52,216 bases of DNA, from the NCBI GenBank assembly GCA_041548585.1, contig JBFESJ010000001.1:1-52216 (forward strand), written 5' to 3'. The stretch's first letter is position 1. Each line of letters begins with the position of its first letter. Below are positions 1 to 40,827 of the stretch, piece after piece. Position numbers and translations under genes: made by a program. Under the pieces are notes generated by a model. That model searched no databases. It saw nothing but the letters and a program-made list of their open reading frames with translations, and was not told the DNA's origin. Source of the DNA: Desulfobacterales bacterium (GTDB lineage: Bacteria > Desulfobacterota > Desulfobacteria > Desulfobacterales > UBA11574).

Positions 1-26
1 AACTAAAAATCCAGAAAAAATGTTTG

Positions 27-56
27 TTGACTTATACCAATATGTTAAAATATTAT
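27..56 (+). promoter_or_regulatory. candidate sigma70-type promoter (TTGACT-N18-TATTAT)
   Basis: TTGACT is at 27-32 and TATTAT at 51-56 with an 18-nt spacer, oriented toward the ORF at 249. This is a motif match only. Confidence 0.3.
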
Positions 57-106
57 TCATTTTATAATTATTCTATAACAAAGATAATTTTGCCCAACGT
101 GAGTGA

Positions 107-168
107 CTGACAGACAATCCCCTCGATGGTGGCAAAAAACGCTCGCTATCGAGGGGATTGTCTGTCAG
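107..168. repeat. perfect 21-bp inverted repeat with a 20-nt loop (strong stem-loop)
   Basis: ctgacagacaatcccctcgat (107-127) is the exact reverse complement of atcgaggggattgtctgtcag (148-168). Confidence 0.9.
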
Positions 169-248
169 CGATACGATGTGCTTTTTCACATTCAATCTTT
201 TACTGTTTTCATATTTAAATTTATATTCAAAATTATGGAGGATGAACC

Positions 249-653
249 ATGACCGAAAAGTTGAAGGCCGGCATCACCCATGAAATGGAACGAGAAACCA
301 CTGAAGACATGTCTGCACAAAAGGTCTATCCTCATGTGCCGAACGTTTACGCCACCAGGGCCATGGTCGGGCATATTGAAGAGGTATGTGCGGATCTGGT
401 TCTTCCCTATCTCGGAGAGGGAGAGCAAACCGTCGGAACCGGTATGAAATTTAAACACATGGCAGCTACGCCTTTGGGGATGAAGGTTCGGTACAGTGCC
501 AAGTTAGCGGAAGTCGACGGCCCCAAACTGACGTTTGAGGTGGAAGGCTTTGATGAGGTGGACAAGATTGGCGTCGCCACACACCAGCGTTTTATCATCA
601 ATGCTGAAAAGTTCAACAGCCGGGTTGCAAAAAAGGCAGAGAAAACAACGTGA
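249..653 (+). CDS. hotdog-fold thioesterase (fluoroacetyl-CoA-thioesterase-like small family)
   Basis: The ORF is 134 aa with a GGAGGA RBS. The blocks GTGMKFKHMAATPLGMKV..AKLAEVDGPKLTFEVEGFD..IGVATHQRFII are typical of this family. Confidence 0.65.
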   Translation: MTEKLKAGITHEMERETTEDMSAQKVYPHVPNVYATRAMVGHIEEVCADLVLPYLGEGEQTVGTGMKFKHMAATPLGMKVRYSAKLAEVDGPKLTFEVEGFDEVDKIGVATHQRFIINAEKFNSRVAKKAEKTT

Positions 654-786
654 CCGGAAATCAGGGGTCAGGGATCGGGGTTCGGCAATAAAGGCTTAGG
701 GCTTCATTTATTTTTGACATTTAATGAACCTGTTAATTGTCGATCTTAAATCGAAAATCTTCAATTACAATCAAGGGAGGTAGACC

Positions 787-2808
787 ATGGCAGTGACGGA
801 TCCCATTCGCCAGCTGGATGCCATTCTGAGACCCAAAAGCGTGGCCGTTATCGGTGCCTCAACCAGCCCGGACAAAATGGGCCATGAAATTCTGAAAAAC
901 ATCATCGACAGCGGCTTTGAGGGCGCTGTTTATCCCATCAACCCCAAGGCTGATGTTATTCTTGATCTTGCCTGTCACAAGAGCGTCAAGGACATTGCCA
1001 AACCACCGGACCTGGCTGTTATCATCATTCCGGCTCGATTTGTACCCCAGGCAGTTCAAGAATGCGGTGAAGCCGGTGTGAAGGGCGCGGTGATCATTAC
1101 CGGCGGTTTCAGTGAGGCCGGCGAGGAAGGCGAACAGCTTCAGAATCAGGTCGTTGAAGCCGCGCAAAAATTCGGCGTTCGTATCATCGGGCCCAACTGC
1201 CAAGGCGTAAACAATCCCCATCACCCCCTGTGTGCGTCCTGGCCGCTGCTGACTTACCAGGGCAAGATCGCGCTCATTTCCCAGAGCGGTACCGTTGGCG
1301 CTGCCATGATGGACTGGCTGTCCGAGGATAAACTGGGGACTTCAAGCTTTGTCAGCATGGGCAATCGCGCCGATGTCGATGAAACCGACCTTATTGCCTA
1401 TTTCAATCAGGACCCCAACACCGGGGTCATTGCTGCTTATATCGAAGGAATCAAACGTCCGGAACGATTCATTCAGGCGGTGGAGCAGCTTCAAAAGCCA
1501 CTGGTGGTTCTAAAGTCCGGCCGTACACCCAAAGGGAAGGTGGCAGCCGAGTCCCACACCAAGGCTTTGGCCGGTGCTGATGCTATTTATGAATCCCTTT
1601 TTGCAAAATATAACATTTGCAGGGCCTATACGGCGGAAGCATTTTATGATTACACCAAGGCTCTGGCTTATCTCAAACCACCGAAGGGCAATCGTATTCT
1701 GTTTATCACCACATCCGGAGGTGCTGCTATTCTGGCAACGGATCAGGCCGAACAAGAAGGTTTAGACGTATCTCCGCTGCCCGAAGCGTTGGTGGAGGCC
1801 ATAACGCCGCTTATTCCGGCCCATGCAATTAAGGCCAACCCCATTGATCTTACCGGAGATGCCACTGCTCAGATGTTCGGAGATGTTATTGAGGTCACCC
1901 GAAAGCACTACGACACCCTGGGGGTGATTTTTGGAGATCCGGTGGAAGATGCCTCCCGTGTCGTGACGCCCAATGCCAATGAGTTGATTATCTTTTATGG
2001 GGGGGCAGACGTCGAACGTTATGAACGTGAACGCATGCACCTTAAAGGAATTCCGGTTTTTCCCACTCCCGAAAGGGGAATAAAGGCACTGGCCCAGGTA
2101 CTTGAGCGTAAAGCGTTGGATACACCACAGAATCCGACCCTGACTGTCCCGGCGGCCGGCCGCCAACTGCCGCTTCATCGGGCATTTTCACGCATCGCCG
2201 AACAAGGCTTGCCCTGTACCGAATTTGCCCTGGCGGACAGCCAAACCAGTGCCGTTCAGATTGCTCAGGAACAAGGATTCCCGGTAGCGCTTAAAATCAG
2301 CTCACCTGATATTCTACACAAGAGCGATGTCGGAGGGGTAGAGCTCGATCTAAATTCTGCTGAAGCCGTTGAAAAAGGCTACGATGCGTTGCTGTCGGCT
2401 GTGAAACGCAGCAATCCAAAAGCTCAGGTGGATGGCGTGTTGGTGAGCAAAATGGCGTCACCCGGATTGGAGGTCATTGTAGGAATGAACCGTGACCCGC
2501 AGTTCGGTCCGGTGATTCTTTTTGGCCTTGGCGGTATCATGGTGGAGATCTTTCAGGATGTGAGCCTCAGACTTCTTCCCTTGACAAAGGAAGAGGCCAT
2601 GACCATGATACGGGAAATAAAAGGCTACAGGCTCATTGCCGGTTATCGCGGCAGGCCTGCAGTGGATGAACAGGCGTTGGCAGACTGTCTGTTAACTGTT
2701 GCCCGGCTGGCAGAAGGGTCTCCGGATATTATTGAGATCGATCTTAATCCGGTCTTCGCCTATCCGAACGGAATACAGGTGGCAGATGTCAGGATTATTG
2801 TAAAATAA
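787..2808 (+). CDS. acetate--CoA ligase (ADP-forming) family protein, fused alpha/beta
   Basis: The ORF is 673 aa with a GGGAGG RBS. It has an N-terminal CoA-binding/SCS-like region (VAVIGAS..PINP, GPNCQG, SQSG) and a C-terminal ATP-grasp (FPVALKISSPDILHKSDVGGV). Confidence 0.85.
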   Translation: MAVTDPIRQLDAILRPKSVAVIGASTSPDKMGHEILKNIIDSGFEGAVYPINPKADVILDLACHKSVKDIAKPPDLAVIIIPARFVPQAVQECGEAGVKGAVIITGGFSEAGEEGEQLQNQVVEAAQKFGVRIIGPNCQGVNNPHHPLCASWPLLTYQGKIALISQSGTVGAAMMDWLSEDKLGTSSFVSMGNRADVDETDLIAYFNQDPNTGVIAAYIEGIKRPERFIQAVEQLQKPLVVLKSGRTPKGKVAAESHTKALAGADAIYESLFAKYNICRAYTAEAFYDYTKALAYLKPPKGNRILFITTSGGAAILATDQAEQEGLDVSPLPEALVEAITPLIPAHAIKANPIDLTGDATAQMFGDVIEVTRKHYDTLGVIFGDPVEDASRVVTPNANELIIFYGGADVERYERERMHLKGIPVFPTPERGIKALAQVLERKALDTPQNPTLTVPAAGRQLPLHRAFSRIAEQGLPCTEFALADSQTSAVQIAQEQGFPVALKISSPDILHKSDVGGVELDLNSAEAVEKGYDALLSAVKRSNPKAQVDGVLVSKMASPGLEVIVGMNRDPQFGPVILFGLGGIMVEIFQDVSLRLLPLTKEEAMTMIREIKGYRLIAGYRGRPAVDEQALADCLLTVARLAEGSPDIIEIDLNPVFAYPNGIQVADVRIIVK

Positions 2809-2970
2809 AATCGTGTTACGATTTTATAAAACTCCCTCAGCATAGGCTGCGGGAGCAAATTGACGATTCAGCCGTCGTAGCTGAGCACTCAATCATTTGT
2901 AATAGAATAATGATATCGTTTAGATTTGTTTTGCCACAAAAAACAAAAAATTTACCATTAAGGAACGTAG

Positions 2971-3945
2971 ATGAATGAATTTGATGGTCTTGTTTCAAGG
3001 CTCAAGAACAAGTACCCCATGTTGCAAAATTTTACCGATCGTACCTTTGGTGTGGAGATCGAATTTTTCGGGCTGAACTATGTGATAACACCATTGGACA
3101 ATAGTATCATCAAACCCTACTGCATTTCATCCCGCGCTAAAGACGGGCGCCACATTTCAGATCTTTACAAGGATTACAATATAGTTCTTGGCAACAGCCG
3201 GGACACATGGCACTTTGAGCAAGATAGTTCCGTCAGAGGCAAAGGACACACCAGATGTGGTGCTGAACTGATCAGCCCGATTTTAAGCGGCATGGAAGGA
3301 CTGGTGCAAGTCTTCAACGCTTTCCAATTTCTAAAAGCTATTGAAGGAATTGATATTGATGCAAGTTGTGGAATGCATGTTCATCACGGTGTTGACCCTT
3401 CCGCTTACAACTGCAAACAACTCCAGCAGCTTGTACACATCGTTCATCACTATGAAGATCTCTTTTACCTGCTTATCCCGGGAGAACGTCAGGATGCTGA
3501 AACCTGTCGGCCCATGGAAATTGACGTGAAAGCCTTCCTGGATGTCTGTGAAGGCGATGATGATGGCCGCAATTGCCGAATTAAAGATCTCTGGTATTCG
3601 CTTCAAAACCGTTACGACGAAACGTGTGGTGTGAATTCACGCTACGACAAGACCCGCTACCACGGTCTGAATCTGCACTCCTACTGGTATCGCTCTACCA
3701 TTGAATTTCGCTATCACTCAGCCCTGCTGGTAAAAGCAGATGAGGCCATCCAATGGATCATCTTTACCCAGTTCCTTATTGAGTTGAGCCAGGATCACGT
3801 TCCGGATATCTATTACTATCCTGAAGCGAACAAATGGCTGGCAACCATCTATAAGATTTACAAAGAGTTCGGCTATCAGGAACGTATCAAGAAGGCGCCA
3901 GCTAGCGTAAATCGGTCTGTAAAACATATAAAATTGTTTAACTAA
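2971..3945 (+). CDS. glutamine-synthetase-like amidoligase (Amidoligase_2-type)
   Basis: The 324-aa ORF has the blocks FGVEIEFFG, GAELISPIL, CGMHVHHG and STIEFRYHS, which are characteristic of the predicted amidoligase family. It is followed by GATase-like genes, as described for that family. Confidence 0.7.
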   Translation: MNEFDGLVSRLKNKYPMLQNFTDRTFGVEIEFFGLNYVITPLDNSIIKPYCISSRAKDGRHISDLYKDYNIVLGNSRDTWHFEQDSSVRGKGHTRCGAELISPILSGMEGLVQVFNAFQFLKAIEGIDIDASCGMHVHHGVDPSAYNCKQLQQLVHIVHHYEDLFYLLIPGERQDAETCRPMEIDVKAFLDVCEGDDDGRNCRIKDLWYSLQNRYDETCGVNSRYDKTRYHGLNLHSYWYRSTIEFRYHSALLVKADEAIQWIIFTQFLIELSQDHVPDIYYYPEANKWLATIYKIYKEFGYQERIKKAPASVNRSVKHIKLFN

Positions 3946-4098
3946 TAAATATCAAAATAATTGATGTAATAAATCAAATTCATCTTCCAAAAGTATCCAA
4001 TGTCGCTTACCAAAGAATTTTTACAAGTTTATTATTATTAAATCGGCACATTATTTTGATAACGTTGTGAGCAGAAATTATAAGAAGCAGAGGCGACC

Positions 4099-4839
4099 AT
4101 GTGTGACATTTTAGCCATCTCGGCGGGCTATAACTATACACCCAAAACGTATCTGCCCATCTTCGCGGAAAAGGGCAGTGAAAACATGAACGGCTGGGGT
4201 ATCGGCTTTTTTCGCGAGGACCAGGCCCTGGTGGAAAGGTCCGAGGAGAAGGTATTCAGCGATCAACAAGTTCACGAAAGCTTCCAAAGACTCGCCCGGG
4301 TCATCGACAGCCGGATCATTATATCCCATGTCAACTGCCCGAAGAGCGGCGGTCACCACAGTGCGCAACTCCATCCCTTCAAGCTTACCTTTCTGGATCA
4401 CGACTGGTTGTTTGCCCAGGTGGGCGTTGTTGAAAACATTAACGCATATCAAACCACAGGAACACCTCGGCTGGAAGTCGATGTCTACACGGCCAGGATT
4501 TTTGAATATTTAAGAGATCAACTGGTATTACTGAACCGCAAGAACCCGTACATCAGTGTATACATTGCGCTGCGTATTGCGATCCAAGAGCTTTTAGACG
4601 ACTATCCCGGGAATTACACTTTTTTTCTTGCCAATGAATCGTTTCTCTTTGCCTTTTGTAACTTTCGACAGCTGATGATTCTCAAGGCGTCCGAAAGTAT
4701 GGGAGATATTTTGCTGGTTACTTCCGTAAAGGAAGGGCTGAGTCGCACCGATTGGCACCCCATAACACCGGATCCTCAATCCCAAGGCGAGCTTCTGGTG
4801 ATTGCCGGTCCGGATGTGTTGTACGCTGGTGATGTATAA
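4099..4839 (+). CDS. class-II (Ntn) glutamine amidotransferase-like protein, degenerate catalytic motifs
   Basis: The ORF starts Met-Cys (MCDILAIS). It is a paralog of the next ORF but has HVNCPKSGG and AQVGVV where the paralog has HLRFRTSG and AHNGKA. Confidence 0.7.
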   Translation: MCDILAISAGYNYTPKTYLPIFAEKGSENMNGWGIGFFREDQALVERSEEKVFSDQQVHESFQRLARVIDSRIIISHVNCPKSGGHHSAQLHPFKLTFLDHDWLFAQVGVVENINAYQTTGTPRLEVDVYTARIFEYLRDQLVLLNRKNPYISVYIALRIAIQELLDDYPGNYTFFLANESFLFAFCNFRQLMILKASESMGDILLVTSVKEGLSRTDWHPITPDPQSQGELLVIAGPDVLYAGDV

Positions 4840-4892
4840 GAAACAGGTGAAAATCAAAAAAATTATGCTAATCCTATTCTCCTGTCAAAAAA

Positions 4893-5636
4893 ATGTGTGA
4901 CCTTTTTGCCCTCTCTGCCAAGAAAGATTACTCTGCCCCTGAATTTTTGCCAGTTTTTGCAGTTCGGGCCAAAAAAAATATGGACGGATGGGGTATCGGT
5001 TATTTCCGCAAACACCATGCCTTGGTTGAAAAGTCGGCTGAACAGATTTTCCACTCAGGTCAGTTGCACGATAGTTTTCAAAGACTGGCCCGTGTCGTAA
5101 AGAGCAGAATTATCATTTGCCATCTCCGTTTTCGGACCAGCGGGCTTGTGGACGAGTGCCATGCCCATCCCTTTGTGCTAAAATTCGGCGGGCATGATTG
5201 GATATTCGCCCATAACGGCAAGGCACCGGCCATTGAATCTTACAGAAGTAGCGGCATTGCCATTGAAGATGCCATAAGCGATTCAGCCAGAGCGTTTGAA
5301 TATCTCCGGGACCGTATGGAAAACCATCACAGGCATGATACAAAGCCTGAGGAGCTTTTCAATACCCTGTCAAACAGTATTTCGCAAATGATGGACCAGT
5401 ATCCGGGTGAATACAATTTTTTACTCTCCAACGGGCATCTTTTATTTGCCTTCACCAACCATCGCCAGTTTATGCTTATGAAAGGAAGCAGAAAACTGAA
5501 AGGTGCCTTTTTGCTCACCACCCTAGCGCGTGGATTAACCAAAGAAAAGTGGCTGCGTGTGGCAAAAGCCACCAATCGTCGGGGACTGCTTCTTGCAATT
5601 TCAGGCAATGATGTTATTTTACACCAATCAATTTAA
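4893..5636 (+). CDS. class-II (Ntn) glutamine amidotransferase-like protein
   Basis: The ORF starts Met-Cys (MCDLFALS). It retains H-x-R-x-x-T-x-G (HLRFRTSG) and H-N-G (FAHNGKA), as in PurF/YafJ-type Ntn amidotransferases. Confidence 0.8.
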   Translation: MCDLFALSAKKDYSAPEFLPVFAVRAKKNMDGWGIGYFRKHHALVEKSAEQIFHSGQLHDSFQRLARVVKSRIIICHLRFRTSGLVDECHAHPFVLKFGGHDWIFAHNGKAPAIESYRSSGIAIEDAISDSARAFEYLRDRMENHHRHDTKPEELFNTLSNSISQMMDQYPGEYNFLLSNGHLLFAFTNHRQFMLMKGSRKLKGAFLLTTLARGLTKEKWLRVAKATNRRGLLLAISGNDVILHQSI

Positions 5637-5991
5637 TACCTGAATAAAGATAATAAAGATTCTCATCAATTTTCATGCGAGGATTCAGGTAACAAAAAAC
5701 CGACCCAAACCCTAACGTTGCAAAAGTCGAGGGTGCTGCAGATCCGAGGCGTCAAGGGTGAAGCTGTAGTAATTTACCGCAAGCCCTTGACAACGGTGGA
5801 TATGCGGTGCCATCGGCTTTCCCGTAGGGTAAATAACATGGCTGCTTTTCACTGATTTCAGGATGCCATCTGGAGTTCATTCCAGCAGAACAGTTAAAAA
5901 AGGTTGAATAGCTTGTAATTATAACTTTTAAACCCATTTTGTCATGTTATTTATGCAACTATAGGGTAAATAGAGCGTTTCCAATAGTGAC

Positions 5992-6864
5992 ATGCAGAGT
6001 TTACCATCAACATATGAAAAGCAATTAAAGGCGTTGTTTTTAGACAAATCCGAACGGGTTATCGACTTTCCAAAATGGCTCCTCTCAGAAGAATCCATTG
6101 AAAACTACCGGTCCATTTCAAAACTGGCCTTGGTTGAAATCGCCGGCCGGGACAGCATTGCCGCTGCAGTGAAATGGGTACAAGACCATAACTTCACGGA
6201 TCTGTTACCCACTTACGCATATACCGGGACGGAATACGGCCCGTGGGACACCGTAAACCAAGCGCTTTTGCGGCTGAAGACTCGTTTGTCAAAGGTTCGG
6301 ATTCATCCTTTAATTGTACTGGGCTCCCCGAACTTTTGGAAAGCACTCAACGGTGCCTTTATCAGTGAGCTGGTGTCAAGGTACGGTTTTTATACCCCCT
6401 GTATCGGCTGCCATTTGTATTTACATGCGGTTCGGATTCCTCTGGCGCTTTCACTGGGCAATGTTCCCATTATTTCCGGTGAACGTGAACGCCATAACGG
6501 TTCCGTAAAGATAAACCAGGTCTCCGAAGCGCTGAATTCATACAAAAAAATGTCAGAAACATTCGGTGTTCAGCTCCTGCTGCCGCTACGTAATATCGAC
6601 CAGGGAAAAGAGATCGAAACGATCCTCAAAAGGAACTGGCATGAGGGAAAAGAGCAGCTCCATTGCTGTCTTTCGGGCAACTATCTCTCCATTGATGGTT
6701 CGGTTGAGATGAATAGGACACAGGTTGTGCGCTATCTCAATGACTTTGCAATACCCTGTACCAAAAAGATTATCCGGGAATATATATCCGGACAAATTCC
6801 AAATCATTTAAAAATCGCAAAACAAATCATACGAAATCTGAAATCCGCCGGGAGTGTTCAATGA
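5992..6864 (+). CDS. adenine-nucleotide alpha-hydrolase (PP-loop)-like protein, degenerate motif; function unknown
   Basis: The 290-aa ORF has EIAGRDSIAAA in place of SGGxDS. The later blocks IISGERERH and FGVQLLLPLRNI resemble Dph6/MJ0570-type ATP pyrophosphatases, and there is a CIGCH motif. The ORF itself is solid; the family assignment is tentative. Confidence 0.45.
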   Translation: MQSLPSTYEKQLKALFLDKSERVIDFPKWLLSEESIENYRSISKLALVEIAGRDSIAAAVKWVQDHNFTDLLPTYAYTGTEYGPWDTVNQALLRLKTRLSKVRIHPLIVLGSPNFWKALNGAFISELVSRYGFYTPCIGCHLYLHAVRIPLALSLGNVPIISGERERHNGSVKINQVSEALNSYKKMSETFGVQLLLPLRNIDQGKEIETILKRNWHEGKEQLHCCLSGNYLSIDGSVEMNRTQVVRYLNDFAIPCTKKIIREYISGQIPNHLKIAKQIIRNLKSAGSVQ

Positions 6865-7652
6865 AACCGAAAGTTGTTCTGTGTAACCTTTTCAATGATA
6901 TAAAACAACTCAAAGCGTTTGCCCTCGATAATGACTTTTCAGGTGTAGACTGGTCTTTTGATTTGAAGAATCTGCCGGAAAGCCCTGCGGAAGAAACCCG
7001 ATGGGTCGAACATTTGTTTATTTTAAATCCCCTTGAGATGCGTTACCATTGTCCTTTTATGAAAGTCGATCTCGGTCACGAGGATTCTTCCCAAGTCTTG
7101 TCGGCTTTGAAACTCTTCCAGCGTGTCATACGACTGGTTTCTAAAGCCGACGGCAAATTTTTGACCTTGCATGTGGGACTCGGTCATAATACCACGCGCA
7201 TACTTTCGTGGGAAAGAACAATATCCAATTTGCGGGGCTTGGTTCAGTATGGTGCTGATCGCGGCGTGAGAGTATGTCTGGAGAACCTGGCCTGGGGATG
7301 GACCAGCAAACCCAATCTGTTTGAAAAGTTGATTCGGCGGACCGGCGCGGGGGTGACCTTTGATATCGGGCATGCACTTGCCTGCGAATCGGTCAGCAAC
7401 CAATACTTTACGGCCGAAGATTTTGTTTCCCCCCATCCGGACCGAGTGTACAATGCCCATATCTACCATACCGAAATCACCGGGCAAGGACATGTCCCGC
7501 CCGATGAGATCGAAGACGTCAAAGAGCGCCTGGATACGCTGTGTAACATCGGGTGTTACTGGTGGGTCATCGAGCTAAAAAAGCCCCATCAATTGCTGAA
7601 GACAAAACAGATCATAGACAACTATATTGAAAAAACATTCACAATTAAATAG
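6861..7652 (+). CDS. sugar-phosphate isomerase/epimerase-like TIM-barrel protein (xylose-isomerase-like fold)
   Basis: The 263-aa ORF overlaps the upstream gene by ATGA. It has the blocks LTLHVGLGH, VCLENL and FDIGHA. Confidence 0.7.
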   Translation: MKPKVVLCNLFNDIKQLKAFALDNDFSGVDWSFDLKNLPESPAEETRWVEHLFILNPLEMRYHCPFMKVDLGHEDSSQVLSALKLFQRVIRLVSKADGKFLTLHVGLGHNTTRILSWERTISNLRGLVQYGADRGVRVCLENLAWGWTSKPNLFEKLIRRTGAGVTFDIGHALACESVSNQYFTAEDFVSPHPDRVYNAHIYHTEITGQGHVPPDEIEDVKERLDTLCNIGCYWWVIELKKPHQLLKTKQIIDNYIEKTFTIK

Positions 7653-7679
7653 TATTTTGGAATCAACTAAAGGTGAGCA

Positions 7680-8987
7680 ATGAAGGTTGTCCTCGTGCTT
7701 TTAGACGGATTGGGCGATCGTTCTTACAGCGTTCTGAACAATCAAACGCCCCTTGAAGCCGCAGACACCCCCAACCTGGATCGCCTGACCCAATTGGGCG
7801 GAAATGGCTTGTTTCACCCCTCGATCTCCGGTCAATGCCTTCCCAGTGAGACGGCTCATTTTTTGCTCTTTGGATACGATTTGAAAAATTTTCCGGGCCG
7901 TGCTCTATTTGAAGCTGTGGGCGAAGGGGTCCCTTTTGATGAGAATGATGTGCTGGTTTTAGCCCACCTTTCCGGTGTTGAATGGAAAAATAATCGACCT
8001 ATTTTAACTTTCGGGCGAGATAATATCAAAGGGACATTTGAAGATATCGGCCGCTGGTATTCTGTCATCCGCGATTTCGAATCTGATGGTATTAACATCC
8101 GGCTTCAGCAAACCCGACGCAACGATGCCATCCTGGTTTTAAACGGACCGGTTTCCCCGTACATATCCGACTCGGATCCGATCGTTCTCGGTAAGCCCAT
8201 CGGCAAAATTGTACCATTGTCTGAGAATCCGGAGCCGGAAGCGTCCAGCCGAAGCGCCAAAGCACTAAACCACTATCTCACCCACTGCTACCGTCAACTC
8301 AAAAAATTAGACCGCGAATATCAAAAGCAAAGAATTAAACCGCCGGGCGAACTCTTTTTGGTGACTCAGCGAAGCGGGCGCCGGGTCGGTCTGCCATCTT
8401 TTCAGGAGCACTGGGGTCTAAAAGGATTGATGATTGCCTCGGTCTCCGTTTATGCCGGCCTGGCCAATGAACTTAAAATCGACTATCGATCGGTGCAAGA
8501 CTCTGATGATCCGGGTCTGGACTTACAGGATCGGATCCGGATAGCCGTGTCCGATACAACACACGATTTTATACACGTACATACCAAAATTCCCGATGAA
8601 GCCGCCCATACCGGCGACCCGCTTTATAAAAAGGATCAAATTGCCCGGCTTGACCGGGGGCTGAAGGCGTTGGTACAGGCCGTCGAAAAAGAGGAAGATT
8701 TGCTGGTGGTTGTAACGGCCGATCATTCAACCCCGAGCATATCGCCCATGATTCACTCGGGCGAGCCTGTTCCGATGGTTATGGCCGGTCCGAGTGTTCG
8801 CAGAGATGATGTGGCGTATTTCTCCGAGATCCAGGCTGCACGCGGGTGTCTGGGAATGTTACGCGGCGCTGAGCTGATGTACATGATTCTTAATTTTTCG
8901 AATCGAGGCAACTTGTACGGGCATCAATTGGGATCGATCAAAAGGGATTATCTACCGTCCGACTATGATCCGTTTGAACTTATTTGA
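7680..8987 (+). CDS. cofactor-independent phosphoglycerate-mutase-like metalloenzyme (archaeal ApgM type)
   Basis: The 435-aa ORF has the N-terminus MKVVLVLLDGLGDR and the block VVVTADHSTP, which are alkaline-phosphatase-superfamily signatures. Confidence 0.75.
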   Translation: MKVVLVLLDGLGDRSYSVLNNQTPLEAADTPNLDRLTQLGGNGLFHPSISGQCLPSETAHFLLFGYDLKNFPGRALFEAVGEGVPFDENDVLVLAHLSGVEWKNNRPILTFGRDNIKGTFEDIGRWYSVIRDFESDGINIRLQQTRRNDAILVLNGPVSPYISDSDPIVLGKPIGKIVPLSENPEPEASSRSAKALNHYLTHCYRQLKKLDREYQKQRIKPPGELFLVTQRSGRRVGLPSFQEHWGLKGLMIASVSVYAGLANELKIDYRSVQDSDDPGLDLQDRIRIAVSDTTHDFIHVHTKIPDEAAHTGDPLYKKDQIARLDRGLKALVQAVEKEEDLLVVVTADHSTPSISPMIHSGEPVPMVMAGPSVRRDDVAYFSEIQAARGCLGMLRGAELMYMILNFSNRGNLYGHQLGSIKRDYLPSDYDPFELI

Positions 8988-9263
8988 GGAGTCGGGGAGT
9001 TTTTCTAAATATTCGCTCCATGGATAATCTTTTTTTAAAACGCGTGAACTCGTGGCAACGGCTCGTAAAGAAAGAACAGAAATCAATCTTTGAAAAATCA
9101 ATAGGTTCACTGTGCAATTTGCAATTTCTTTTAAAGATGTGATTTCGGCATGCGTCTGTTCTTTCTAACGATCCCTAAGCCACTCAAACAGCACCCCATT
9201 TAAAAAAAGATCATCCATTCCGCTAATACTTAACGATTTAGAAGAAAAACTCTCCGAGGGCTC
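8988..9263. repeat. ~275-nt imperfect palindrome filling the convergent apgM-like/nuoN intergenic region
   Basis: The arms pair around a centre near 9125. For example, atggataatctttttttaaa (9020s) pairs with tttaaaaaaagatcatccat (9199-9218), agaaagaacaga (9068-9079) pairs with tctgttctttct (9156-9167), and gagtttttc pairs with gaaaaactc. Confidence 0.75.
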
Positions 9264-9273
9264 ACTTATTTAA

Positions 9274-10707
9274 CTATAGAACGGCCGCAACCGCCTCTTT
9301 GGCAAAATCGAGAAACCCTTGAGGGAAAGTGCCCAACATAAGGATGATCACGATAAAAAAGATTCCCAAAAGGGATGTGGACAACCTGAGATTAAGGCGG
9401 GGAATCGGGGAATCTACATTGGTATAGGCCGCCCTGACCATTTTAAGATAATAAAAAATCGCGATTCCGGTATTGATCACCGCAAGAATAACCAGGGCAT
9501 ACATATCTTTTTTAATGGCGGCGGTAAAAAGAAAAAGCTTACCGGTAAAACCGATGGTCGGCGGAATGCCGGCCAGACCAAAGGCTCCGATGGCCAGCGT
9601 TAACGCCAGCAGAGGGGAGCGTTTATAAAGGCCGCTAAGACCGTCAAAGGTAATGTTTTCGCCTTGGGGGGCCAGGTTGTAAATAACGAAAAAACAAGCC
9701 AAATTCATCAAAAGATATCCTGTAATATAATAGATGCCTGAAAGATATCCGAAGTCACTGGCACAAAGGAGACCGATCATTACATAACCGGCATGGGCGA
9801 TACTGGAGTATGCCAGTAGACGCTTGAGATCGTTCTGCACCAGGGCCGATAAGTTTCCAAAGGTCATGGAGAGCACGGCAAAAATCATCAGAACCCAGGT
9901 AAACTGGCCTGCATCCATACCTGCCAAGGAAATCAGTCGGATCAACAATGCCACGGCACCAATTTTGGGAAGCGTCGCGACAAAGCCGGACGTCTCGTTG
10001 GCAGCGCCTTCGTATACGTCAGGTGCCCAGAAGTGCATGGGAAAAAGTGCCAGTTTGTAAAAGAAACCGCTAAGTAGCATGACGAGACCGATAAGCATCA
10101 GGGGTTTTTTGAGGATGACGCCGGGTATGATTTTCACAAGATCGGCAAGATATGTGGTGTGCGTCATTCCAAAAATATAGCTCATACCGTAAAGGGATAT
10201 ACCGGATGCTGCAGCGCCGAATAGAACGTATTTGATTCCCGCTTCCATGGGCTTTCGATGGGCGCCCTGTTTTCGGAACGGAATGATGATAAAAAGGGCA
10301 AAAGAGTGTATTTCAAGAGAGAGTATGATCGTTATCAGCTCAACAGCGCTGCTCATGCACATCAGGCCGAAAGCACTTAAGGCCAGAAAAAGATAGTACT
10401 CCGGCCGGAGGGCATTATCGATACCATAAAGCCCATCTCCCAAGTAGATCACGATAAAAAGGCCGAAGGCGATGATGATCTTAAATACCTGGGAAAACGC
10501 ATCCACACGATACGCATCGAAGAATAGAGACCCTACCATTCCATATGAATATACGGATACAAGAACGGCAATGGCGGATAATAAAAGACCCAGGCCTTGA
10601 AGGCGAGTCGCTTTGAAATTTCCCAAAGAAGCAAAAAAGAAAACCAGAGCCATTAGAATCAATGTCAGTTCGGGTAAAAATAATGTCATACCATTCAATC
10701 CATTCAA
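9274..10707 (-). CDS. nuoN: NADH-quinone oxidoreductase subunit N
   Basis: This polytopic membrane ORF is 477 aa, has the LSLEIHSF block and is the last gene of the nuo operon. The ORF opens at a TTG; an ATG at 10689 is an alternative start. Confidence 0.85.
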   Translation of the reverse strand: MNGLNGMTLFLPELTLILMALVFFFASLGNFKATRLQGLGLLLSAIAVLVSVYSYGMVGSLFFDAYRVDAFSQVFKIIIAFGLFIVIYLGDGLYGIDNALRPEYYLFLALSAFGLMCMSSAVELITIILSLEIHSFALFIIIPFRKQGAHRKPMEAGIKYVLFGAAASGISLYGMSYIFGMTHTTYLADLVKIIPGVILKKPLMLIGLVMLLSGFFYKLALFPMHFWAPDVYEGAANETSGFVATLPKIGAVALLIRLISLAGMDAGQFTWVLMIFAVLSMTFGNLSALVQNDLKRLLAYSSIAHAGYVMIGLLCASDFGYLSGIYYITGYLLMNLACFFVIYNLAPQGENITFDGLSGLYKRSPLLALTLAIGAFGLAGIPPTIGFTGKLFLFTAAIKKDMYALVILAVINTGIAIFYYLKMVRAAYTNVDSPIPRLNLRLSTSLLGIFFIVIILMLGTFPQGFLDFAKEAVAAVL

Positions 10708-10722
10708 AATTTCGTTAAGCCA

Positions 10723-12309
10723 CTATTTTAGGGCCAGTACATGTTTAATCGACTCTCCTACCCCGCCCAAGAACGCATGAGATTCCCCATGCCCTGCCGG
10801 TAGAACCTGCATACCGGACTCCAACTGCTCGAGAAGGTGTGTGGTACTGGTGTCCATAACTTTCAGAAAAGGCTCCGGGTTCAATCCGATCCAAAAAACG
10901 AAGACGGTGAGAAACGCCAATGTGGCGCTTTCTCTGAAGTTGAGATCAAATAGATTTGATTTGTCACCATGATGCATGTGACCGTCTGAATCGGCCCAGA
11001 CCATCTTTTGAACAAGCCTTAGCATGTACGCTGCCGCCAAAATGGCGCCAATAACCGCAAGCCCGCCCACAACTTTGTATTTGGAAAATGAAGCCAAGAG
11101 AACAAGAAACTCTCCCACAAAACTGTTGGTTCCGGGAAATGCCAACGAAGATAGAGAAAATATTACCAAAAAGGTAACATAAATCGGCATCACCATCCCC
11201 AATGCGCTATTGTCGGAGATCTCACGGCTGTGTGTCCGTTCATAGATAATACCCACCAAGATAAAGAGGGCGCCTGTGGTAATGCCGTGATTTACCATTT
11301 GCAGTATGGCGCCTTTGATGCCGGCATCATTTAAAAGAAATATCCCCAGCGTGACAAAGCCCATATGGCCCACACTGGAGTATGCGATGAGGCGCTTTAC
11401 ATCGCTTTGGCCCAGAGCAAGATAGCCGCCGAAAATAATTGATATTACGGAAATTGCAATTAAATAGGGCATGAAGTACATTGTGGCTGCAGGTGCCATG
11501 GGGAGGCAAAAGCGCAAAAAACCGTAACCGCCCATTTTAAGCAGGATACTTGCCAGAATGACACTGCCTGCTGTCGGGGCTTCCACATGGGCTGCCGGGA
11601 GCCATGTATGAACAGGCCACATGGGAACCTTTATGGCAAAGGCCAGTGTAAAGGCCCAAAAGATCCATGCTTGATAACCAAAACTGTAATGGTGTGTCAT
11701 TAAATCCGGAATAAAAAAGGTTCCGGTTGTGACATACATCACGATGATGGCGACAAAGAGAAATATGCTTCCAATCAGGGTGTAGAGAAAGAATTTAATG
11801 GATGCATAGTCTTTGCGCGGTCCCCCCCATACCGCAATGATAAGGTACATGGGAACCAGCATCGCTTCCCAAAAGATAAAGAAAAGAACGAAGTTTAAAC
11901 TGACAAAAACGCCCACCATGGATGCTTCCATAATGAGCAGGACACAAATGAACTCTTTGAACCTATCTTTAATATAACTCCATGAACAGAGAATACAAAG
12001 CGGCATCACCAACGTCGTGAGGAGGACTAAAAGAACACTGATTCCATCTACACCGAGAACATAATCGATATCTACAAACGGAATCCAGTCCCTAAATTCG
12101 GCGAACTGGTACTTGGCCGTTGTGAGATCAAAATTTGAATAAAGGGGCAAAGAAAGTACCGCGGTAATGAGTGTTACGATCAATCCCCAGATTTTCAAGT
12201 ACCTGTCACCCCGAATAAAAAGCGTAATCAGTGACCCAAACAGTGGAACAGCCACTAAAACCGTCAGAATCGGATAGCTTAAGGTATTATAAATAAGATA
12301 TTGTTCCAT
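10723..12309 (-). CDS. nuoM: NADH-quinone oxidoreductase subunit M
   Basis: The ORF is 528 aa and has the FIFWEAMLVPMY block typical of NuoM. Confidence 0.85.
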   Translation of the reverse strand: MEQYLIYNTLSYPILTVLVAVPLFGSLITLFIRGDRYLKIWGLIVTLITAVLSLPLYSNFDLTTAKYQFAEFRDWIPFVDIDYVLGVDGISVLLVLLTTLVMPLCILCSWSYIKDRFKEFICVLLIMEASMVGVFVSLNFVLFFIFWEAMLVPMYLIIAVWGGPRKDYASIKFFLYTLIGSIFLFVAIIVMYVTTGTFFIPDLMTHHYSFGYQAWIFWAFTLAFAIKVPMWPVHTWLPAAHVEAPTAGSVILASILLKMGGYGFLRFCLPMAPAATMYFMPYLIAISVISIIFGGYLALGQSDVKRLIAYSSVGHMGFVTLGIFLLNDAGIKGAILQMVNHGITTGALFILVGIIYERTHSREISDNSALGMVMPIYVTFLVIFSLSSLAFPGTNSFVGEFLVLLASFSKYKVVGGLAVIGAILAAAYMLRLVQKMVWADSDGHMHHGDKSNLFDLNFRESATLAFLTVFVFWIGLNPEPFLKVMDTSTTHLLEQLESGMQVLPAGHGESHAFLGGVGESIKHVLALK

Positions 12310-27882: not shown

Positions 27883-30825
27883 CTATCGATGAAATCGTTC
27901 AAAATCAAACAGTTCGATTTCTTTACCAATCGTCTTATCCGCCCGTTTGACCTTAATCTTGACTGTACTTCCAATCTTGCCGTAAAACAAGGCAAGTTTC
28001 AGATCCGCCAGTGATTGTATGGGTCGTTCTGCAACCATCTCGATTACGTCACCTTTCTGAAGTTCGGCTTTTTGTGCAGGACCATTTTGACTCACCCCCA
28101 TGATCACCAGACCCTGATCTTTTTCTTCGACCATTACCCCCAGTTTTGGCGACTTTTTCCCGCTGAGTTTTGTGGTTAACAGTACAAAATCTGCCACACC
28201 GTCTTCAATCGCTTCATCCTGAACAACAACGGTGAATGGTTGGTGGTTCCGCCGATAAAGTCGGTCCGGAATTCCATATTTATGCCTGACATGACCATTG
28301 CCCGCCAGAATTATCATTTTATGATCGGGATGGTTTACCAAAAAGCGATGCGCGGACTCGGCCATGCCTTCATCCCATACCATTTGAGCCTGTAAAAAAT
28401 AGTTGAAGTTCTGGAGATCTTCTTGTTTATTGTGCACAACAAATACCTGGTTCAAATCCTTCCGGTACGTTTCATTTGAAAAATTCATGTCAGAAGGCAA
28501 TTGTTTTTTTTGCTTGTCAGGCAGATCGTACATCCCTTCCCGTGCAATTTTACGGGTGAGATCTCCCTGAATATTTAAGGCAACAAGCGGGATGCGCTGT
28601 TGTTTGAGATAATCGATAATCGGTTTATACAAATTGTAATCGTATCTCCACCTGCTGAAATATTCTGTCTTTTTTAAAAAAGTAAACTCGTCAATCCGTC
28701 CGACCAGGTAGTCATCCACGACTTGTTGATACGGCTTTTGGAACATTTCCATGCCCACAGCCAGAGAATATCCGGCGTCGTGGATTTTTTTGATCACTTT
28801 CAACTGGTTCATATGATGCGCAAATTGGTCGTGGGTTTCTCCAACGTAAATAATACGCGAAGCCGTAAGTTGTGGGATAATATCGTCTATTGTTGCAAGT
28901 GCATCAGGCTTAAGCGCCCTGACTGCCGGACGGGATAACATCTGAATGCCGTTTTCTGATTCGGCAATCGCTTTGAAGGTGTTTCGGCCGTCTTCAAAGG
29001 CAAGCTCGGTATATTTTCCATAGTGCGATATTTTATACTGAACCGCCTGTGCCTCCTGTTTGTCGGCGGCATTTAACAATGCAACACGTTCCCTTTCATT
29101 ATACGGATTTTTATATACTTTTACATGCAATCCGTCTTCTGAAAACGTCTGTTTGCCAAAAAGCATTTTCACGACAGGATTGTCATAGCCTGCAATGAGC
29201 AACGAATTTTCTTGAATCTGATTAAAAGTAATATTATCCGGTGTTGCATAATCAATCGTTTTAATCCCCATAGCATCAATCAGCGGTTGGTATGTTGAAC
29301 GTTTTAAAGATGAGATCACGGCAATCAGCTTTTCCTTGCCCATGATGCCGGCCAAAACCGGAGGCGCTTCTTCAGGAGCTAAGTGTCGCATCAGCGCGTA
29401 ATTTTCGTCCATAACGACTTTATTGGGGGGATCATCAAGGGTCAGCGAAATGTTTTCTTTTGAATTTTTCACATCAACCCATTGTGTATGTTTGTGTTTA
29501 CCGGCATAAAACGTAATGGGGATGTTCAGAGGATAGGGCTCATCATGCTGCAAAAGGTCAAAATTCAGCTTTAGTTTACCCTCCGTCACATACAACTTGG
29601 TATTTTTCACATCAAGACGAGGAATATTTTTTCGGGTTAGCCAATCCCCGAAATAGGTATACAGCTTTTCCCCGGTCGCTCTTTCAAAAGCGTGCTGGAT
29701 GTCAAGCCAGGAAGCCTGGTGGAACCGATTCTGTCGAATAAAATCTTTAAGAGCTGCATAAAAGGTTTCATTACCGTAAAGCCTATGCAGCCCGTGAAAC
29801 AGCATGGCGCCTTTCCCATAGCCGATAACACTCTGGGCCTTGTTGCCTCGGCTTGTAAAATCGCTTAATTGCATGGCATTGTCCGCATGGACATACGCAT
29901 TGTAATCCACCAGGATCTGTTTTCGATAGGCAGTATCTTTCCCTTCTAAAGCGGCATAGTAATGATCGGAGAGATAGGTCGTTAGCCCTTCCGCCCAATT
30001 GCCGGATACAAAATCGATATAAACGGAATTACCGAACCATTGATGTAAAATTTCATGTCCCAGAGAGGTCTTGACAATAAACGGCAAACGCACCACCTGG
30101 TTGCCCAGAAGGGTGAATGTGGGCATGGAGTTTCCGGTGGGCAATATATTTTCTACAATGGCAAAGCGCCGGTATGGGTAGGACGTGAGCATCTTTATGT
30201 ACATGTCCAGATATTTTTTTGTATAGGCAAGATAAGCATCTGCAAGATGGGCGTCCTCTTTAAAGAAATACGCTTCAATGTCGACGTTTTTATATCGATC
30301 TTTTTTTTGAACATAGCGGTTTGAAGCGGCCAGGTGCAAACTATCCAGGGGATGATTAAACTCAAACACAAAGGTTTTTGCTCTGCCCTGTTTTTGAATG
30401 GTTGTATATTCAGATTCAGATATGGCAATAAAATTTTCCGGCAAGGTCACAGAAAGCATATACTCAACCAGATCATCGGGCTGTGGATACCAACCGGATG
30501 TTAAAACTACATGATCTTTATCGATAAAGTTAATCCGGCTTTTGTTAATCAAGGCTTCATAGCGAATCTTGATTTCCTTGCCGCTTTGCAATGAAAGGTG
30601 AAGAATGTCACCGGTTGCGTTGGTGATGTCGCTACCCTCCAAATTCAATACCTTCAAATTCTGAACGGAAAGATCAAGCTTGATATCGGCATCCGCTTTC
30701 AAACGGGCAATGCCGGTGATTTTTTGTTCGGCGGTGTTTATTTGCACATCAAGTGTATATTTCATATTTGCACTCCAGGCCGTCACGGGTAGACAAATCA
30801 TCAAGACAAAGAGTAATTTTTTCAT
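27883..30825 (-). CDS. secreted multidomain protein: M1-type gluzincin peptidase + ChaN/Tiki-like domain + PDZ
   Basis: The ORF has a signal peptide (MKKLLFVLMICLPVTAWS) and HEILH-x18-E (WAEG). The block IIYVGETHDQFAHH is ChaN-like, and the C-terminal block GLVIMGVSQNGPAQKAELQKGDVI is a PDZ domain. Confidence 0.75.
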   Translation of the reverse strand: MKKLLFVLMICLPVTAWSANMKYTLDVQINTAEQKITGIARLKADADIKLDLSVQNLKVLNLEGSDITNATGDILHLSLQSGKEIKIRYEALINKSRINFIDKDHVVLTSGWYPQPDDLVEYMLSVTLPENFIAISESEYTTIQKQGRAKTFVFEFNHPLDSLHLAASNRYVQKKDRYKNVDIEAYFFKEDAHLADAYLAYTKKYLDMYIKMLTSYPYRRFAIVENILPTGNSMPTFTLLGNQVVRLPFIVKTSLGHEILHQWFGNSVYIDFVSGNWAEGLTTYLSDHYYAALEGKDTAYRKQILVDYNAYVHADNAMQLSDFTSRGNKAQSVIGYGKGAMLFHGLHRLYGNETFYAALKDFIRQNRFHQASWLDIQHAFERATGEKLYTYFGDWLTRKNIPRLDVKNTKLYVTEGKLKLNFDLLQHDEPYPLNIPITFYAGKHKHTQWVDVKNSKENISLTLDDPPNKVVMDENYALMRHLAPEEAPPVLAGIMGKEKLIAVISSLKRSTYQPLIDAMGIKTIDYATPDNITFNQIQENSLLIAGYDNPVVKMLFGKQTFSEDGLHVKVYKNPYNERERVALLNAADKQEAQAVQYKISHYGKYTELAFEDGRNTFKAIAESENGIQMLSRPAVRALKPDALATIDDIIPQLTASRIIYVGETHDQFAHHMNQLKVIKKIHDAGYSLAVGMEMFQKPYQQVVDDYLVGRIDEFTFLKKTEYFSRWRYDYNLYKPIIDYLKQQRIPLVALNIQGDLTRKIAREGMYDLPDKQKKQLPSDMNFSNETYRKDLNQVFVVHNKQEDLQNFNYFLQAQMVWDEGMAESAHRFLVNHPDHKMIILAGNGHVRHKYGIPDRLYRRNHQPFTVVVQDEAIEDGVADFVLLTTKLSGKKSPKLGVMVEEKDQGLVIMGVSQNGPAQKAELQKGDVIEMVAERPIQSLADLKLALFYGKIGSTVKIKVKRADKTIGKEIELFDFERFHR

Positions 30826-35865: not shown

Positions 35866-36402
35866 ATGTGGCTGAATTTTAGTGTCAGGAAAAAGCTTTG
35901 TTTGAGTGATTGTTTACATGGAAAAGGTGTTTTTGCGGCTGAAGACATCCATGCAGAGGAAGAGATTTTACAATTCGGAGGACCTATCATCGGGCTCGAA
36001 GAACTCCCAAAACCATATACGGCCCAAGATGACTACTATCTTCAAATCGGTGCAAACATGTTTCTTGGCCCTTCCGGAAAATTGGATGATTATATAAACC
36101 ATTCGTGCACCGCAAATACTGTCGTGATATTTGATTCCGGTGTTATAAAACTTGTAGCTATCATTTTTATTCCCGCAGGGAATCAGATAACTTATGACTA
36201 TTCCACCACGATGGATAATTTCTGGTGGGAAATGGAGTGTGCCTGCGGTTCGGAAAATTGCCGACGAAAAGTAAAAAACTTTTTGGATCTTTCAGAACAG
36301 TTGCAATCGAAATATATCAATATGGGCATTGTGCCGGAATACATTCTTAAAAAACTGCCAAGGATACAATTGAGCATATCTGATAGTTGCCATGCTTTAT
36401 AA
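35866..36402 (+). CDS. SET-domain protein (putative lysine methyltransferase) with post-SET Cys motif
   Basis: The 178-aa ORF has an AAGGGGG RBS and the blocks GKGVFAAEDI, INHSCTANT, ITYDY and CACGSENCRRK. Confidence 0.75.
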   Translation: MWLNFSVRKKLCLSDCLHGKGVFAAEDIHAEEEILQFGGPIIGLEELPKPYTAQDDYYLQIGANMFLGPSGKLDDYINHSCTANTVVIFDSGVIKLVAIIFIPAGNQITYDYSTTMDNFWWEMECACGSENCRRKVKNFLDLSEQLQSKYINMGIVPEYILKKLPRIQLSISDSCHAL

Positions 36403-36454
36403 AAGATAAAGTTTAATTTTAACCAAATAACATTATGCATTCTGAGGTTTTAAA

Positions 36455-37012: not shown

Positions 37013-37084
37013 GCACAATTAATGGGATTGCTTTTAGTTTATTATGGCCACTCCAAGTTTAATGAAATTCAAGGACGATTCAAA

Positions 37085-39072: not shown

Positions 39073-39228
39073 TCACCCCCCCCCCTCATTTTGCGTTCAC
39101 GTTTAACGAAATTTGTTAGTTTCATAAAAATTTATAAATCTCTTATCATCCTGCGGATCTTTTTCCAGCTGCAGTCTATCTTTCCTTCTCTATGCTTCAC
39201 TATAAGCTTTCGGAATGCCCACCAAATA

Positions 39229-40817: not shown

Positions 40818-40827
40818 TTCTGTCGGG

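Follow-up and report, generated by a model that had tools for sequence, protein, structure and literature searches.

Neighbouring genes for an Amidoligase_2 protein and a class-II (N-terminal nucleophile, Ntn) glutamine amidotransferase (GATase) are common in phages and bacteria and have been discussed since 2009, when Iyer, Abhiman, Burroughs and Aravind reportedly predicted such gene pairs in both. Here, we analysed a locus of this kind in a Desulfobacterales bacterium (assembly GCA_041548585.1). The window, by which we mean the whole stretch of DNA analysed, comprises positions 1-52,216 of contig JBFESJ010000001.1 (52,216 nucleotides, nt), and all coordinates of the locus are given on its scale. 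The amidoligase (AL) is followed by two GATase_4 paralogs, of which the downstream copy (GATb) carries the canonical glutamine-site residues and the upstream copy (GATa) carries a conserved set of its own in the same fold. The three open reading frames (ORFs) are:

2971 to 3945, forward strand: AL, 324 amino acids (aa), Pfam Amidoligase_2 (PF12224)
4099 to 4839, forward strand: GATa (upstream copy), 246 aa, GATase_4 paralog with a re-tooled pocket
4893 to 5636, forward strand: GATb (downstream copy), 247 aa, GATase_4 paralog with a complete class-II (Ntn) glutamine/gamma-glutamyl site

The trio is a conserved module that stands on its own in the chromosomes of sulfate-reducing and syntrophic Deltaproteobacteria and is confined to Desulfobacterales and Syntrophobacterales. 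Its positions, the quoted motifs and the Met-Cys starts of both paralogs had been given in the original prediction, and all were exact.

Phage amidoligase-GATase pairs are reported for UFV-P2 (ORF23/25) and for OM43 phages, and they occur in LUZ24-like phages as well. For the phiEco32 pair, a paper citing Iyer et al. (PMC10580990) mentions a suggested role in cell-wall modification, and a 2023 paper leaves the functions of the phage pair to future exploration. A paper on thymidine hypermodification only lists the amidoligase and amidotransferase Pfam matches as uncharacterised. Two further “amidoligase” papers were not applicable, as DUF71/COG2102 proteins are PP-loop enzymes and Klebsiella CfmP is an ATP-grasp protein. 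In the literature searched, no experimental characterisation of any Amidoligase_2 protein or of its substrate was found, which is consistent with the original prediction that no product or target of such systems had been determined experimentally. In Arthrobacter phage Ottawa (locus L088 in our numbering, 3309-5284), the Amidoligase_2 gene gp65 is directly followed by a single GATase_6 gene, gp66. In Bacillus phage 055SW001 (L087, 3444-5852), a gamma-glutamyl cyclotransferase (GGACT) is encoded four genes from the amidoligase, which is a weak hint to gamma-glutamyl-amine chemistry.

The Desulfobacterales locus resembles the phage pairs in that the gene of a ligase with the glutamine synthetase (GS) fold precedes that of an Ntn GATase. 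Unlike the phage pairs, it is chromosomal and syntenic in Desulfobacterota, and AL is 25-30% identical to the phage ligases. The partner is a GATase_4 here and a GATase_6 in the phages, with no BLASTP similarity between GATb and Ottawa gp66. Moreover, the partner is duplicated and one copy re-tooled, an arrangement that was neither seen in the Ottawa locus nor described in the phage literature examined. That Amidoligase_2 pairs with a class-II GATase is thus already known as a prediction, and the duplicated GATase_4 partner with a re-tooled copy is new.

Among characterised systems, the mycobacterial ergothioneine enzymes EgtA and EgtC appear to be the nearest analogue in logic and fold. EgtC is a GATase_4 gamma-glutamyl amidohydrolase that works with the GS-fold ligase EgtA. 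In both systems, a GS-fold ligase is combined with a Cys-Ntn amidohydrolase of the GATase_4 family that is a separate protein of about 230-250 aa. GATa has EgtC among its best structural matches (template modelling (TM) score about 0.7), and for GATb it is the best NCBIfam match. They differ in that AL is an Amidoligase_2 protein, whereas the EgtA side belongs to the GCS2 family, and in that EgtC lacks a degenerate paralog as a partner. Membership in the EgtC family itself (TIGR03442) was rejected, as GATb and GATa reach 40.4 and 23.6 bits against a cutoff of 218.65 and an ergothioneine context is missing; no homologs of EgtB, EgtD or EgtE are annotated among the neighbouring genes scanned.

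In the systems of PuuA/PuuD, NpaA1 and gamma-glutamylmethylamide synthetase (GmaS), too, an amine is glutamylated at the expense of ATP and the glutamyl group is later removed by hydrolysis. The fold matches of AL include NpaA1 (8wwu/8x6z) and GmaS (9qur), but these gamma-glutamyl-amine synthetases are GS-family proteins of the dodecamer type with about 440-490 aa, compared with 324 aa and TM scores of 0.3-0.4 for AL. The PuuD-type hydrolases of such systems are class-I (triad) GATase-like and not Ntn enzymes.

With PurF, GlmS and AsnB, GATb shares the constellation Cys1, Arg73, Thr76, Asn101-Gly102 and Asp127 (PurF numbering), and GATa shares the fold. In these enzymes, however, the glutaminase is fused to a synthase and channels ammonia, whereas GATa and GATb are stand-alone proteins next to a ligase of another fold. 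Proteins of the PA1307 (1te5)/YafJ type have the same size and provide the closest solved structure, for GATb by sequence and for GATa by fold. They share the HxR, HNG and DS motifs with GATb, which GATa does not have, and occur as single genes rather than as tandem paralogs.

Residues and fold of the two GATase_4 paralogs

Both paralogs were assigned to GATase_4 by Pfam, GATa with 56.7 bits (E 2e-15) and GATb with 100.6 bits (E 9e-29) at a cutoff of 23, and they are 41% identical to each other over 242 residues with one gap (E 3e-72). This bears out the tandem pair of Ntn-amidotransferase-like paralogs in the original prediction. GATb additionally gives a weak GATase_6 match. Its NCBIfam matches to EgtC (2e-10) and PurF (1e-5) are each far under the cutoff, and among PDB sequences it matches 1te5 (3e-11) and EgtC (1e-2). 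In both genes, the start codon that yields the Met-Cys N-terminus is the most upstream one possible.

To map the active-site residues, both paralogs were aligned with canonical relatives and with the glutaminase domain of E. coli PurF, for which we used what we take to be its sequence; the numbering agrees with the literature positions. The relevant segments are HLRFRTSG (77-84) and AHNG (106-109) in GATb, and HVNCPKSGG (77-85) and AQVG (106-109) in GATa. The aligned positions are:

PurF R73: R79 in GATb, N79 in GATa
PurF Y74: F80 in GATb, C80 in GATa
PurF T76: T82 in GATb, K82 in GATa
PurF N101-G102: N108-G109 in GATb, V108-G109 in GATa
PurF D127: D130 in GATb, Y130 in GATa

From this alignment, four glutamine-site side chains are missing in GATa. 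The equivalences to Arg73 and Asn101-Gly102 had been proposed before and are confirmed; the loss in one copy is wider than foreseen, since only the Arg and the Asn-Gly had been listed. Three independent alignments concur on the mapping, and the GATa-GATb alignment has no gaps around the motifs.

Residue counts per column were taken from 64 orthologs of GATa and 47 of GATb, with the copies of the window added. In GATb, C2, R79, N108, G109 and D130 are invariant (48/48), and position 82 is Thr in 45 and Ser in 3 sequences. GATb is therefore predicted to be a catalytically competent, stand-alone enzyme of the EgtC/YafJ type with a complete class-II Cys-Ntn site, and its pocket would suit glutamine or a gamma-glutamyl group with free alpha-amino and alpha-carboxylate groups. 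In the 64 GATa orthologs, the nucleophile C2 is kept throughout and G109 in 61, but the recognition positions have changed: position 79 is Ser (31) or Asn (29), 82 is Lys or Leu, 108 is Val (52) or Ile (12), and 130 is Tyr (52) or Phe (4). GATa has instead its own conserved set, which GATb lacks, with C80, H101 and E180-S181 in 64/64, P81, G85 and H87 in 62, and Y18 and Y151 also among the invariant residues. GATa is a structural member of the class-II GATase superfamily. As the equivalents of the Arg, the Asp and the oxyanion Asn are replaced, the name “glutamine amidotransferase” is inappropriate for it.

One might take GATa for a decaying duplicate or pseudogene, or its residue loss for an alignment artefact, since its GATase_4 score is the lower of the two and four canonical residues are missing. 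The data reject this explanation, which we consider hardly credible. The ORF is intact in 64 loci, and all three genes are under purifying selection, with GATa the most constrained. In 119 pairs of genomes for which dS is unsaturated, its median ratio of nonsynonymous to synonymous substitution rates (dN/dS) is 0.130, whereas GATb has 0.157 and AL 0.173, and its mean pairwise identity is 0.69, compared with 0.66 and 0.65. The 41% identity to GATb without gaps around the motifs and the agreement of the three alignments speak against an artefact, and the structure model is intact and of high confidence. GATa is a re-specialised, selected protein and not a decayed one. The description of its motifs as “eroded” in the original prediction hence had to be given up, in view of the invariant set of its own, the Cys1 kept in 64/64, the highest identity and the lowest dN/dS of the trio.

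The AlphaFold2 model of GATa has a predicted local distance difference test (pLDDT) of 90.7 and a predicted TM score (pTM) of 0.91 and shows an intact Ntn fold. Confidence is lowered only at residues 81-90, which follow the equivalents of PurF R73-T76, and at 121-130. The best structural matches are PA1307 (1te5, 2e-14) and EgtC (4zfj/4zfl), followed by PurF and GlmS, with TM scores of 0.65-0.77 and the highest value for PurF.

How rare this state is was seen in a HMMER search over 1.84 billion representative proteins, which gave 163 clusters at E <= 1e-3. Every full-length relative keeps HxR, HNG and DS, except for four GATa-like clusters. Since these are the only ones, the GATa state appears to be a rare, derived innovation linked to this system. 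It probably arose through tandem duplication of a GATb-type hydrolase. One of the four, P0124 (locus L082), retains the Arg and has FTG in place of HNG. In another, P0125 (L083, 98-844), Gly replaces the nucleophile Cys, and a second gene follows at an overlapping stop/start.

Some other relatives in this search are unusual in different ways. The GATase_4 relatives P0135, P0143, P0146 and P0154 have 14-163 residues ahead of the catalytic Cys (HECDL/ECDL), which could be a self-processed propeptide or an N-terminal fusion; in P0135, this is a Cys-rich N-terminal domain of 163 aa. The canonical relative P0128 (L084, 3971-10762) is clustered with VWA, transglutaminase-core and acetyltransferase proteins. 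The same cluster encodes an 843-aa protein with CDC48_N domains and a faint precomputed GCS2 match, which a direct Pfam scan did not recover.

The amidoligase and a candidate pathway

AL matches Amidoligase_2 with 105.5 bits (cutoff 22, E 5e-30) over model positions 2-242 of 245, as the original prediction had claimed for the 324-aa ORF, and it matches phrog_2443 “amidoligase enzyme” (4e-23). Its motifs are FGVEIEF (26-32), CGMHVHHG (133-140) and STIEFRYH (242-249). Neither a sequence search nor a profile search gave a PDB match. The AlphaFold model is of moderate confidence (pLDDT 72, pTM 0.77), probably because the underlying alignment was shallow, with no sequence below 67% identity. With Foldseek, it matches GS-fold ligases with a probability of 0.9-1.0 and E about 1e-4, though with TM scores of only 0.3-0.4 and identities of 9-14%. 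Besides gamma-glutamylmethylamide synthetase and the 1-naphthylamine GS NpaA1, the matches include glutamine synthetases, YbdK (1r8g, 1tt4) and the gamma-GCL part of GshF (3ln7).

Across 16 orthologs with identities as low as 53%, the residues E29, E31, E99, H136, H138, R229, E245 and R247 do not vary. All of them lie on the predicted beta strands 25-33, 97-101, 134-140 and 243-249, except for R229, which is in a low-confidence loop. By analogy with established GS enzymology, the ExE, E, HxH and ExR residues on these strands would be the arrangement expected of a GS-fold metal and ATP site. Given the fold matches and these invariant strand residues, AL is very probably an active GS-fold ATP-dependent carboxylate-amine ligase.

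We tentatively favour a pathway in which a gamma-glutamyl-type amide is first ligated and later hydrolysed, as with EgtA/EgtC, and in which GATa is a re-specialised partner of the ligase. Which acyl donor is used, how the steps are ordered and whether GATa has a catalytic role are matters of inference. In the first step, AL would spend ATP on linking an amine to a carboxylate, for which the gamma-carboxylate of glutamate is the most plausible candidate; the product would be a gamma-glutamyl-type amide. In the second, GATb would later hydrolyse the glutamyl amide, so that the glutamyl group would serve as a handle, as in EgtA/EgtC and PuuA/PuuD. In the third, GATa, staying with AL, would use its more hydrophobic pocket to bind or cleave another portion of the same intermediate, either the non-glutamyl part or a second amide bond.

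Several observations weigh against this pathway. Its main weakness is that the conserved core encodes no enzyme for a step between ligation and hydrolysis; by themselves, a ligase and a hydrolase would run a futile cycle, so GATa or unlinked genes would have to provide this step. The GATb residues fit free glutamine equally well, as a glutaminase would require. As AL resembles GS-fold structures only remotely, its acyl donor is not readable from homology. As for GATa, the missing Asn oxyanion donor may make it a poor catalyst or none, the divergent GATa-like cluster P0125 has lost Cys1, and positions 79 and 82 each toggle between two states, which resembles local relaxed constraint.

A bolder reading, possible but somewhat doubtful, would make GATa the founder of a functional class of its own among proteins with the class-II GATase/Ntn fold, being either a Cys1-dependent enzyme or a ligand-binding subunit that has ceased to recognise glutamine and is an obligate partner of Amidoligase_2. 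Together with GATb, it would make or recycle a new amide metabolite or a reversible modification that is specific to sulfate-reducing and syntrophic Desulfobacterota. If this is true, its elucidation would for the first time assign a biochemical function to an Amidoligase_2 protein, the widespread phage members of the family included.

The trio is a clean test system, as it consists of three strongly syntenic genes and is present in at least one cultured organism. The paralogs provide a built-in control, being 41% identical and differing precisely at the glutamine-recognition positions. A catalytic GATa would demonstrate the re-specification of an Ntn amidotransferase pocket, and a non-catalytic one would provide a well-documented case of a strongly selected pseudoenzyme partner; in either case, a biochemical result would probably be transferable to the phage systems. 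We regard the trio as a testable entry point to the Amidoligase_2 family, and the result as not startling.

Distribution and separability of the three genes

A scan of one genome per GTDB species yielded 131 relatives of AL, and the best 80 loci (labelled L001 to L080) were analysed. Synteny was determined by tblastn of the window proteins onto these loci, by clustering of neighbouring ORFs and by clustering of the AL sequences. Among the best 80 of the 131, the AL-bearing loci belong mostly to Desulfobacterales, Syntrophobacterales and other metagenome-assembled genomes of Deltaproteobacteria/Thermodesulfobacteriota. Desulfoferrobacter suflitae DRH4 (L068) is a cultured carrier of the trio. 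A few close relatives (L002, L018 and L030, with AL 70-88% identical, and the partial P0094 with 90%) are labelled Nitrospinaceae, archaeon, Neomarinimicrobiota or Anaerolineales. As their synteny is of the Desulfobacterales type, these labels are probably binning errors.

The order AL-GATa-GATb is kept in 52 of the 65 loci with enough downstream sequence. All three findings on which the original prediction was to stand or fall thus held on examination: AL belongs to the amidoligase family, one paralog lacks canonical residues once properly aligned, and the three genes are co-conserved in other genomes. Wherever AL and GATa are both full-length, GATa directly follows AL (62/62, median gap 136 nt). 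The spacing between GATa and GATb has a median of 103 nt and goes down to 11 nt.

The exceptions show that the parts are separable. In a clade of three genomes (L055, L058, L060; AL about 79% identical within the clade), AL is accompanied by a genuine GATa with no adjacent GATb. A sub-clade (L022, L043, L044) has lost both GATs and retained AL with two genes upstream of it, a FlK-type thioesterase and an acyl-CoA synthetase (ACS). On a metagenomic contig (L082, 3100-4589), the divergent GATa-like gene overlaps a canonical GATb-like gene, and no ligase is nearby. An arrangement of AL and GATb without GATa was not seen among the loci examined. From this pattern of presence and absence, GATa is the component most tightly linked to AL.

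In addition, a clade of AL paralogs has no GATs (L015, L019-L021, L023, L025-L028, L030, L035), and several genomes contain both AL paralogs. In L019, L020, L021 and L025, a group-II decarboxylase dependent on pyridoxal phosphate is encoded directly 5' of the paralog AL (33 nt in L019). Next to this decarboxylase-AL pair, genes for an M3-like peptidase and for a protein whose sequence suggests an aminopeptidase are found in L019 (8628-10927), and likewise in L020, L021 and L025.

These patterns bear on the explanation that the trio forms a glutamine-dependent amidoligase complex, in which GATb would act as a glutaminase feeding ammonia to AL, AL would amidate a carboxylate activated by ATP, and GATa would be a non-catalytic pseudo-subunit or adaptor that pairs with GATb or bridges it to AL, in line with the heteromer of the original prediction. 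It accounts for much of the evidence: GATb carries exactly the glutamine-site residues of PurF, GlmS and AsnB; GATa keeps the fold without the glutamine-binding side chains; the genes are adjacent in a fixed order, with GATa and GATb as close as 11 nt and overlapping in L082; and three genes suffice, with no further enzyme required. The retention of AL in L022, L043 and L044 after the loss of both GATs would also be expected if free ammonia suffices. The clade with AL and GATa, however, would have an adaptor without an adjacent glutaminase, unless GATb is encoded elsewhere in those genomes, and the GATa-like/GATb-like pair of L082 exists without a nearby ligase. Moreover, the constraint on GATa is at least that on GATb, and with Cys1 in 64/64 and invariant residues aligned to the pocket (C80 corresponds to PurF Y74), it exceeds what a scaffold needs. 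EgtC, a stand-alone GATase_4 protein, is a hydrolase rather than an ammonia donor. On balance, we hold such a complex, which is the most serious competitor of the favoured pathway, to be rather unlikely.

The presence and absence of the genes argue against an obligate AL-GAT complex and fit separable enzymes acting on amines better. Of the two possibilities raised in the original prediction, GATa as a repurposed copy also fits better than an active/pseudo-enzyme heteromer.

Flanking genes and other features of the window

The flanking genes of the trio are lineage-specific, and nothing else is universally linked to it. In the window, the context genes are:

249 to 653, forward strand: FlK-type hotdog thioesterase (Pfam FlK, 5e-35)
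787 to 2808, forward strand: fused ADP-forming acyl-CoA synthetase, ACS (Pfam ATP-grasp_5, Succ_CoA_lig and CoA_binding)
5992 to 8987, forward strand: block of an unannotated ORF, a xylose-isomerase-like TIM barrel and an apgM-like metalloenzyme (Pfam/NCBIfam)

In Desulfobacterales, FlK-ACS-AL synteny is found in about 40 loci, with a Liv-type ABC transporter further upstream. This raises the question of whether the trio is the tail of a Liv-type ABC/FlK/ACS operon acting on an acyl-amide or N-acyl amino acid, with GATa as a Cys-Ntn amidase with a hydrophobic pocket and AL as the ligase of the reverse reaction. The same-strand order ABC-FlK-ACS-AL-GATa-GATb in most Desulfobacterales and some Syntrophobacterales loci would agree with this, as would the retention of FlK-ACS-AL where the GATs are lost (L022, L043, L044) and the GATa replacements (Val, Tyr/Phe, Cys-Pro), which lower the polarity of the pocket. 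We nevertheless give this operon little credence. Each of the 19 Syntrophobacteraceae-type loci (L062-L080) has the trio but not FlK-ACS; the gap between ACS and AL is sizeable (163 nt in the window, median 147 nt); and no chemistry connects an ADP-forming synthetase with a GS-fold ligase.

Downstream, the 5992-8987 block is a lineage-specific insertion between GATb and nuoN. Apart from partial versions in L001 and L008, only L002, L004, L006 and L032 have it, and in other genomes GATb, or AL itself, directly abuts opposite-strand nuoN/nuoM. As it is limited to the nearest relatives and begins 356 nt after GATb, the block was rejected as a part of the module. Its first ORF (5992-6864, 290 aa) contains AGRDS, perhaps PP-loop-like, and CIGC motifs and gave no match in Pfam, NCBIfam, PHROG, PADLOC or PDB sequences. 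The TIM barrel gene overlaps this ORF by 4 nt and has a weak CbiR match (7e-10). The metalloenzyme is below the apgM cutoff and has a PhpG-like match (4e-46). PADLOC gave no match at E <= 0.01 for the six proteins encoded in 2971-8987, and a role in anti-phage defence was rejected on this basis.

In the Syntrophobacteraceae loci L063, L065-L069 and L071-L074 (e.g., L072, 4036-6892), genes for ThiF/E1-like and ClpX-like AAA+ proteins lie near the trio, together with those for two proteins of 372 and 198 aa without a Pfam match and for a JAB-like protein (HSH...S..D), also without a Pfam match. This set may be a ubiquitin-like conjugation or immunity-type module. It was rejected as an operonic partner of the trio, since orientation and spacing vary.

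A role in tagging has reportedly been proposed for amidoligase systems by Iyer et al. in 2009. For the trio, this would mean that AL attaches an amino acid or a peptide as a tag to a protein or cell-envelope target through an amide or isopeptide bond, and that the Ntn paralogs are thiol peptidases that remove or process it. The cell-wall modification reported as suggested for the phiEco32 pair (PMC10580990) points in this direction, as do the VWA, CDC48_N and transglutaminase-core proteins clustered with P0128 in L084, where the faint GCS2 match stayed unconfirmed by the direct Pfam scan, and the E1-like, AAA+ and JAB-like genes near the trio in Syntrophobacteraceae. Those genes are clade-specific, however, and at times inverted or separated, and hence not operonic. 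In addition, no candidate gene for a tag or target is conserved alongside the trio, the Arg/Thr/Asp triad of GATb recognises a free alpha-amino acid moiety as is typical of small-molecule glutamyl substrates rather than of a peptide chain, and PADLOC gave no matches. Reversible tagging is therefore distinctly unlikely, and we keep to the ligation and hydrolysis of a gamma-glutamyl-type amide as the preferred, if tentative, pathway.

Regarding expression signals, a Shine-Dalgarno-like AAGGA is located 6 nt ahead of the ATG of AL, and no clear Shine-Dalgarno sequence was found for GATb in this window. An Rfam search of positions 1-12000 gave no match to an RNA element at E <= 0.1, and terminator-like hairpins are depleted in positions 1-9400 (3 compared with 10.9 in shuffled sequences). 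An RNA element or attenuator in the intergenic regions of the trio was rejected, as there was no Rfam match and terminator-like sites were below the shuffled level. Matches to sigma-70-like promoters in positions 1-9400 are about twofold enriched (27 compared with 13.2 in shuffled sequences). The spacers around AL-GATa-GATb are markedly AT-rich.

Further along the window, a polyamine cluster of low GC content (0.35-0.41) is found on the forward strand (35866-42759). Its first gene encodes a SET-domain protein, which is unusual at the head of a polyamine operon in bacteria; the others encode a pyruvoyl arginine decarboxylase, a deoxyhypusine-synthase-like protein, an agmatinase/arginase, a sigma-54 activator and a spermidine synthase. 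Just 3' of the cluster, also on the forward strand (43843-46898), lies a second pair of a ligase and an amidohydrolase in the window: a 667-aa protein in which a methyltransferase is fused to an ATP-grasp domain of the D-Ala-D-Ala-ligase C-terminal type, and after it an AstE/AspA-type deacylase. On the reverse strand (27883-30825), a 980-aa protein combines M1-peptidase, ChaN/Tiki-type haem-binding and C-terminal PDZ domains.

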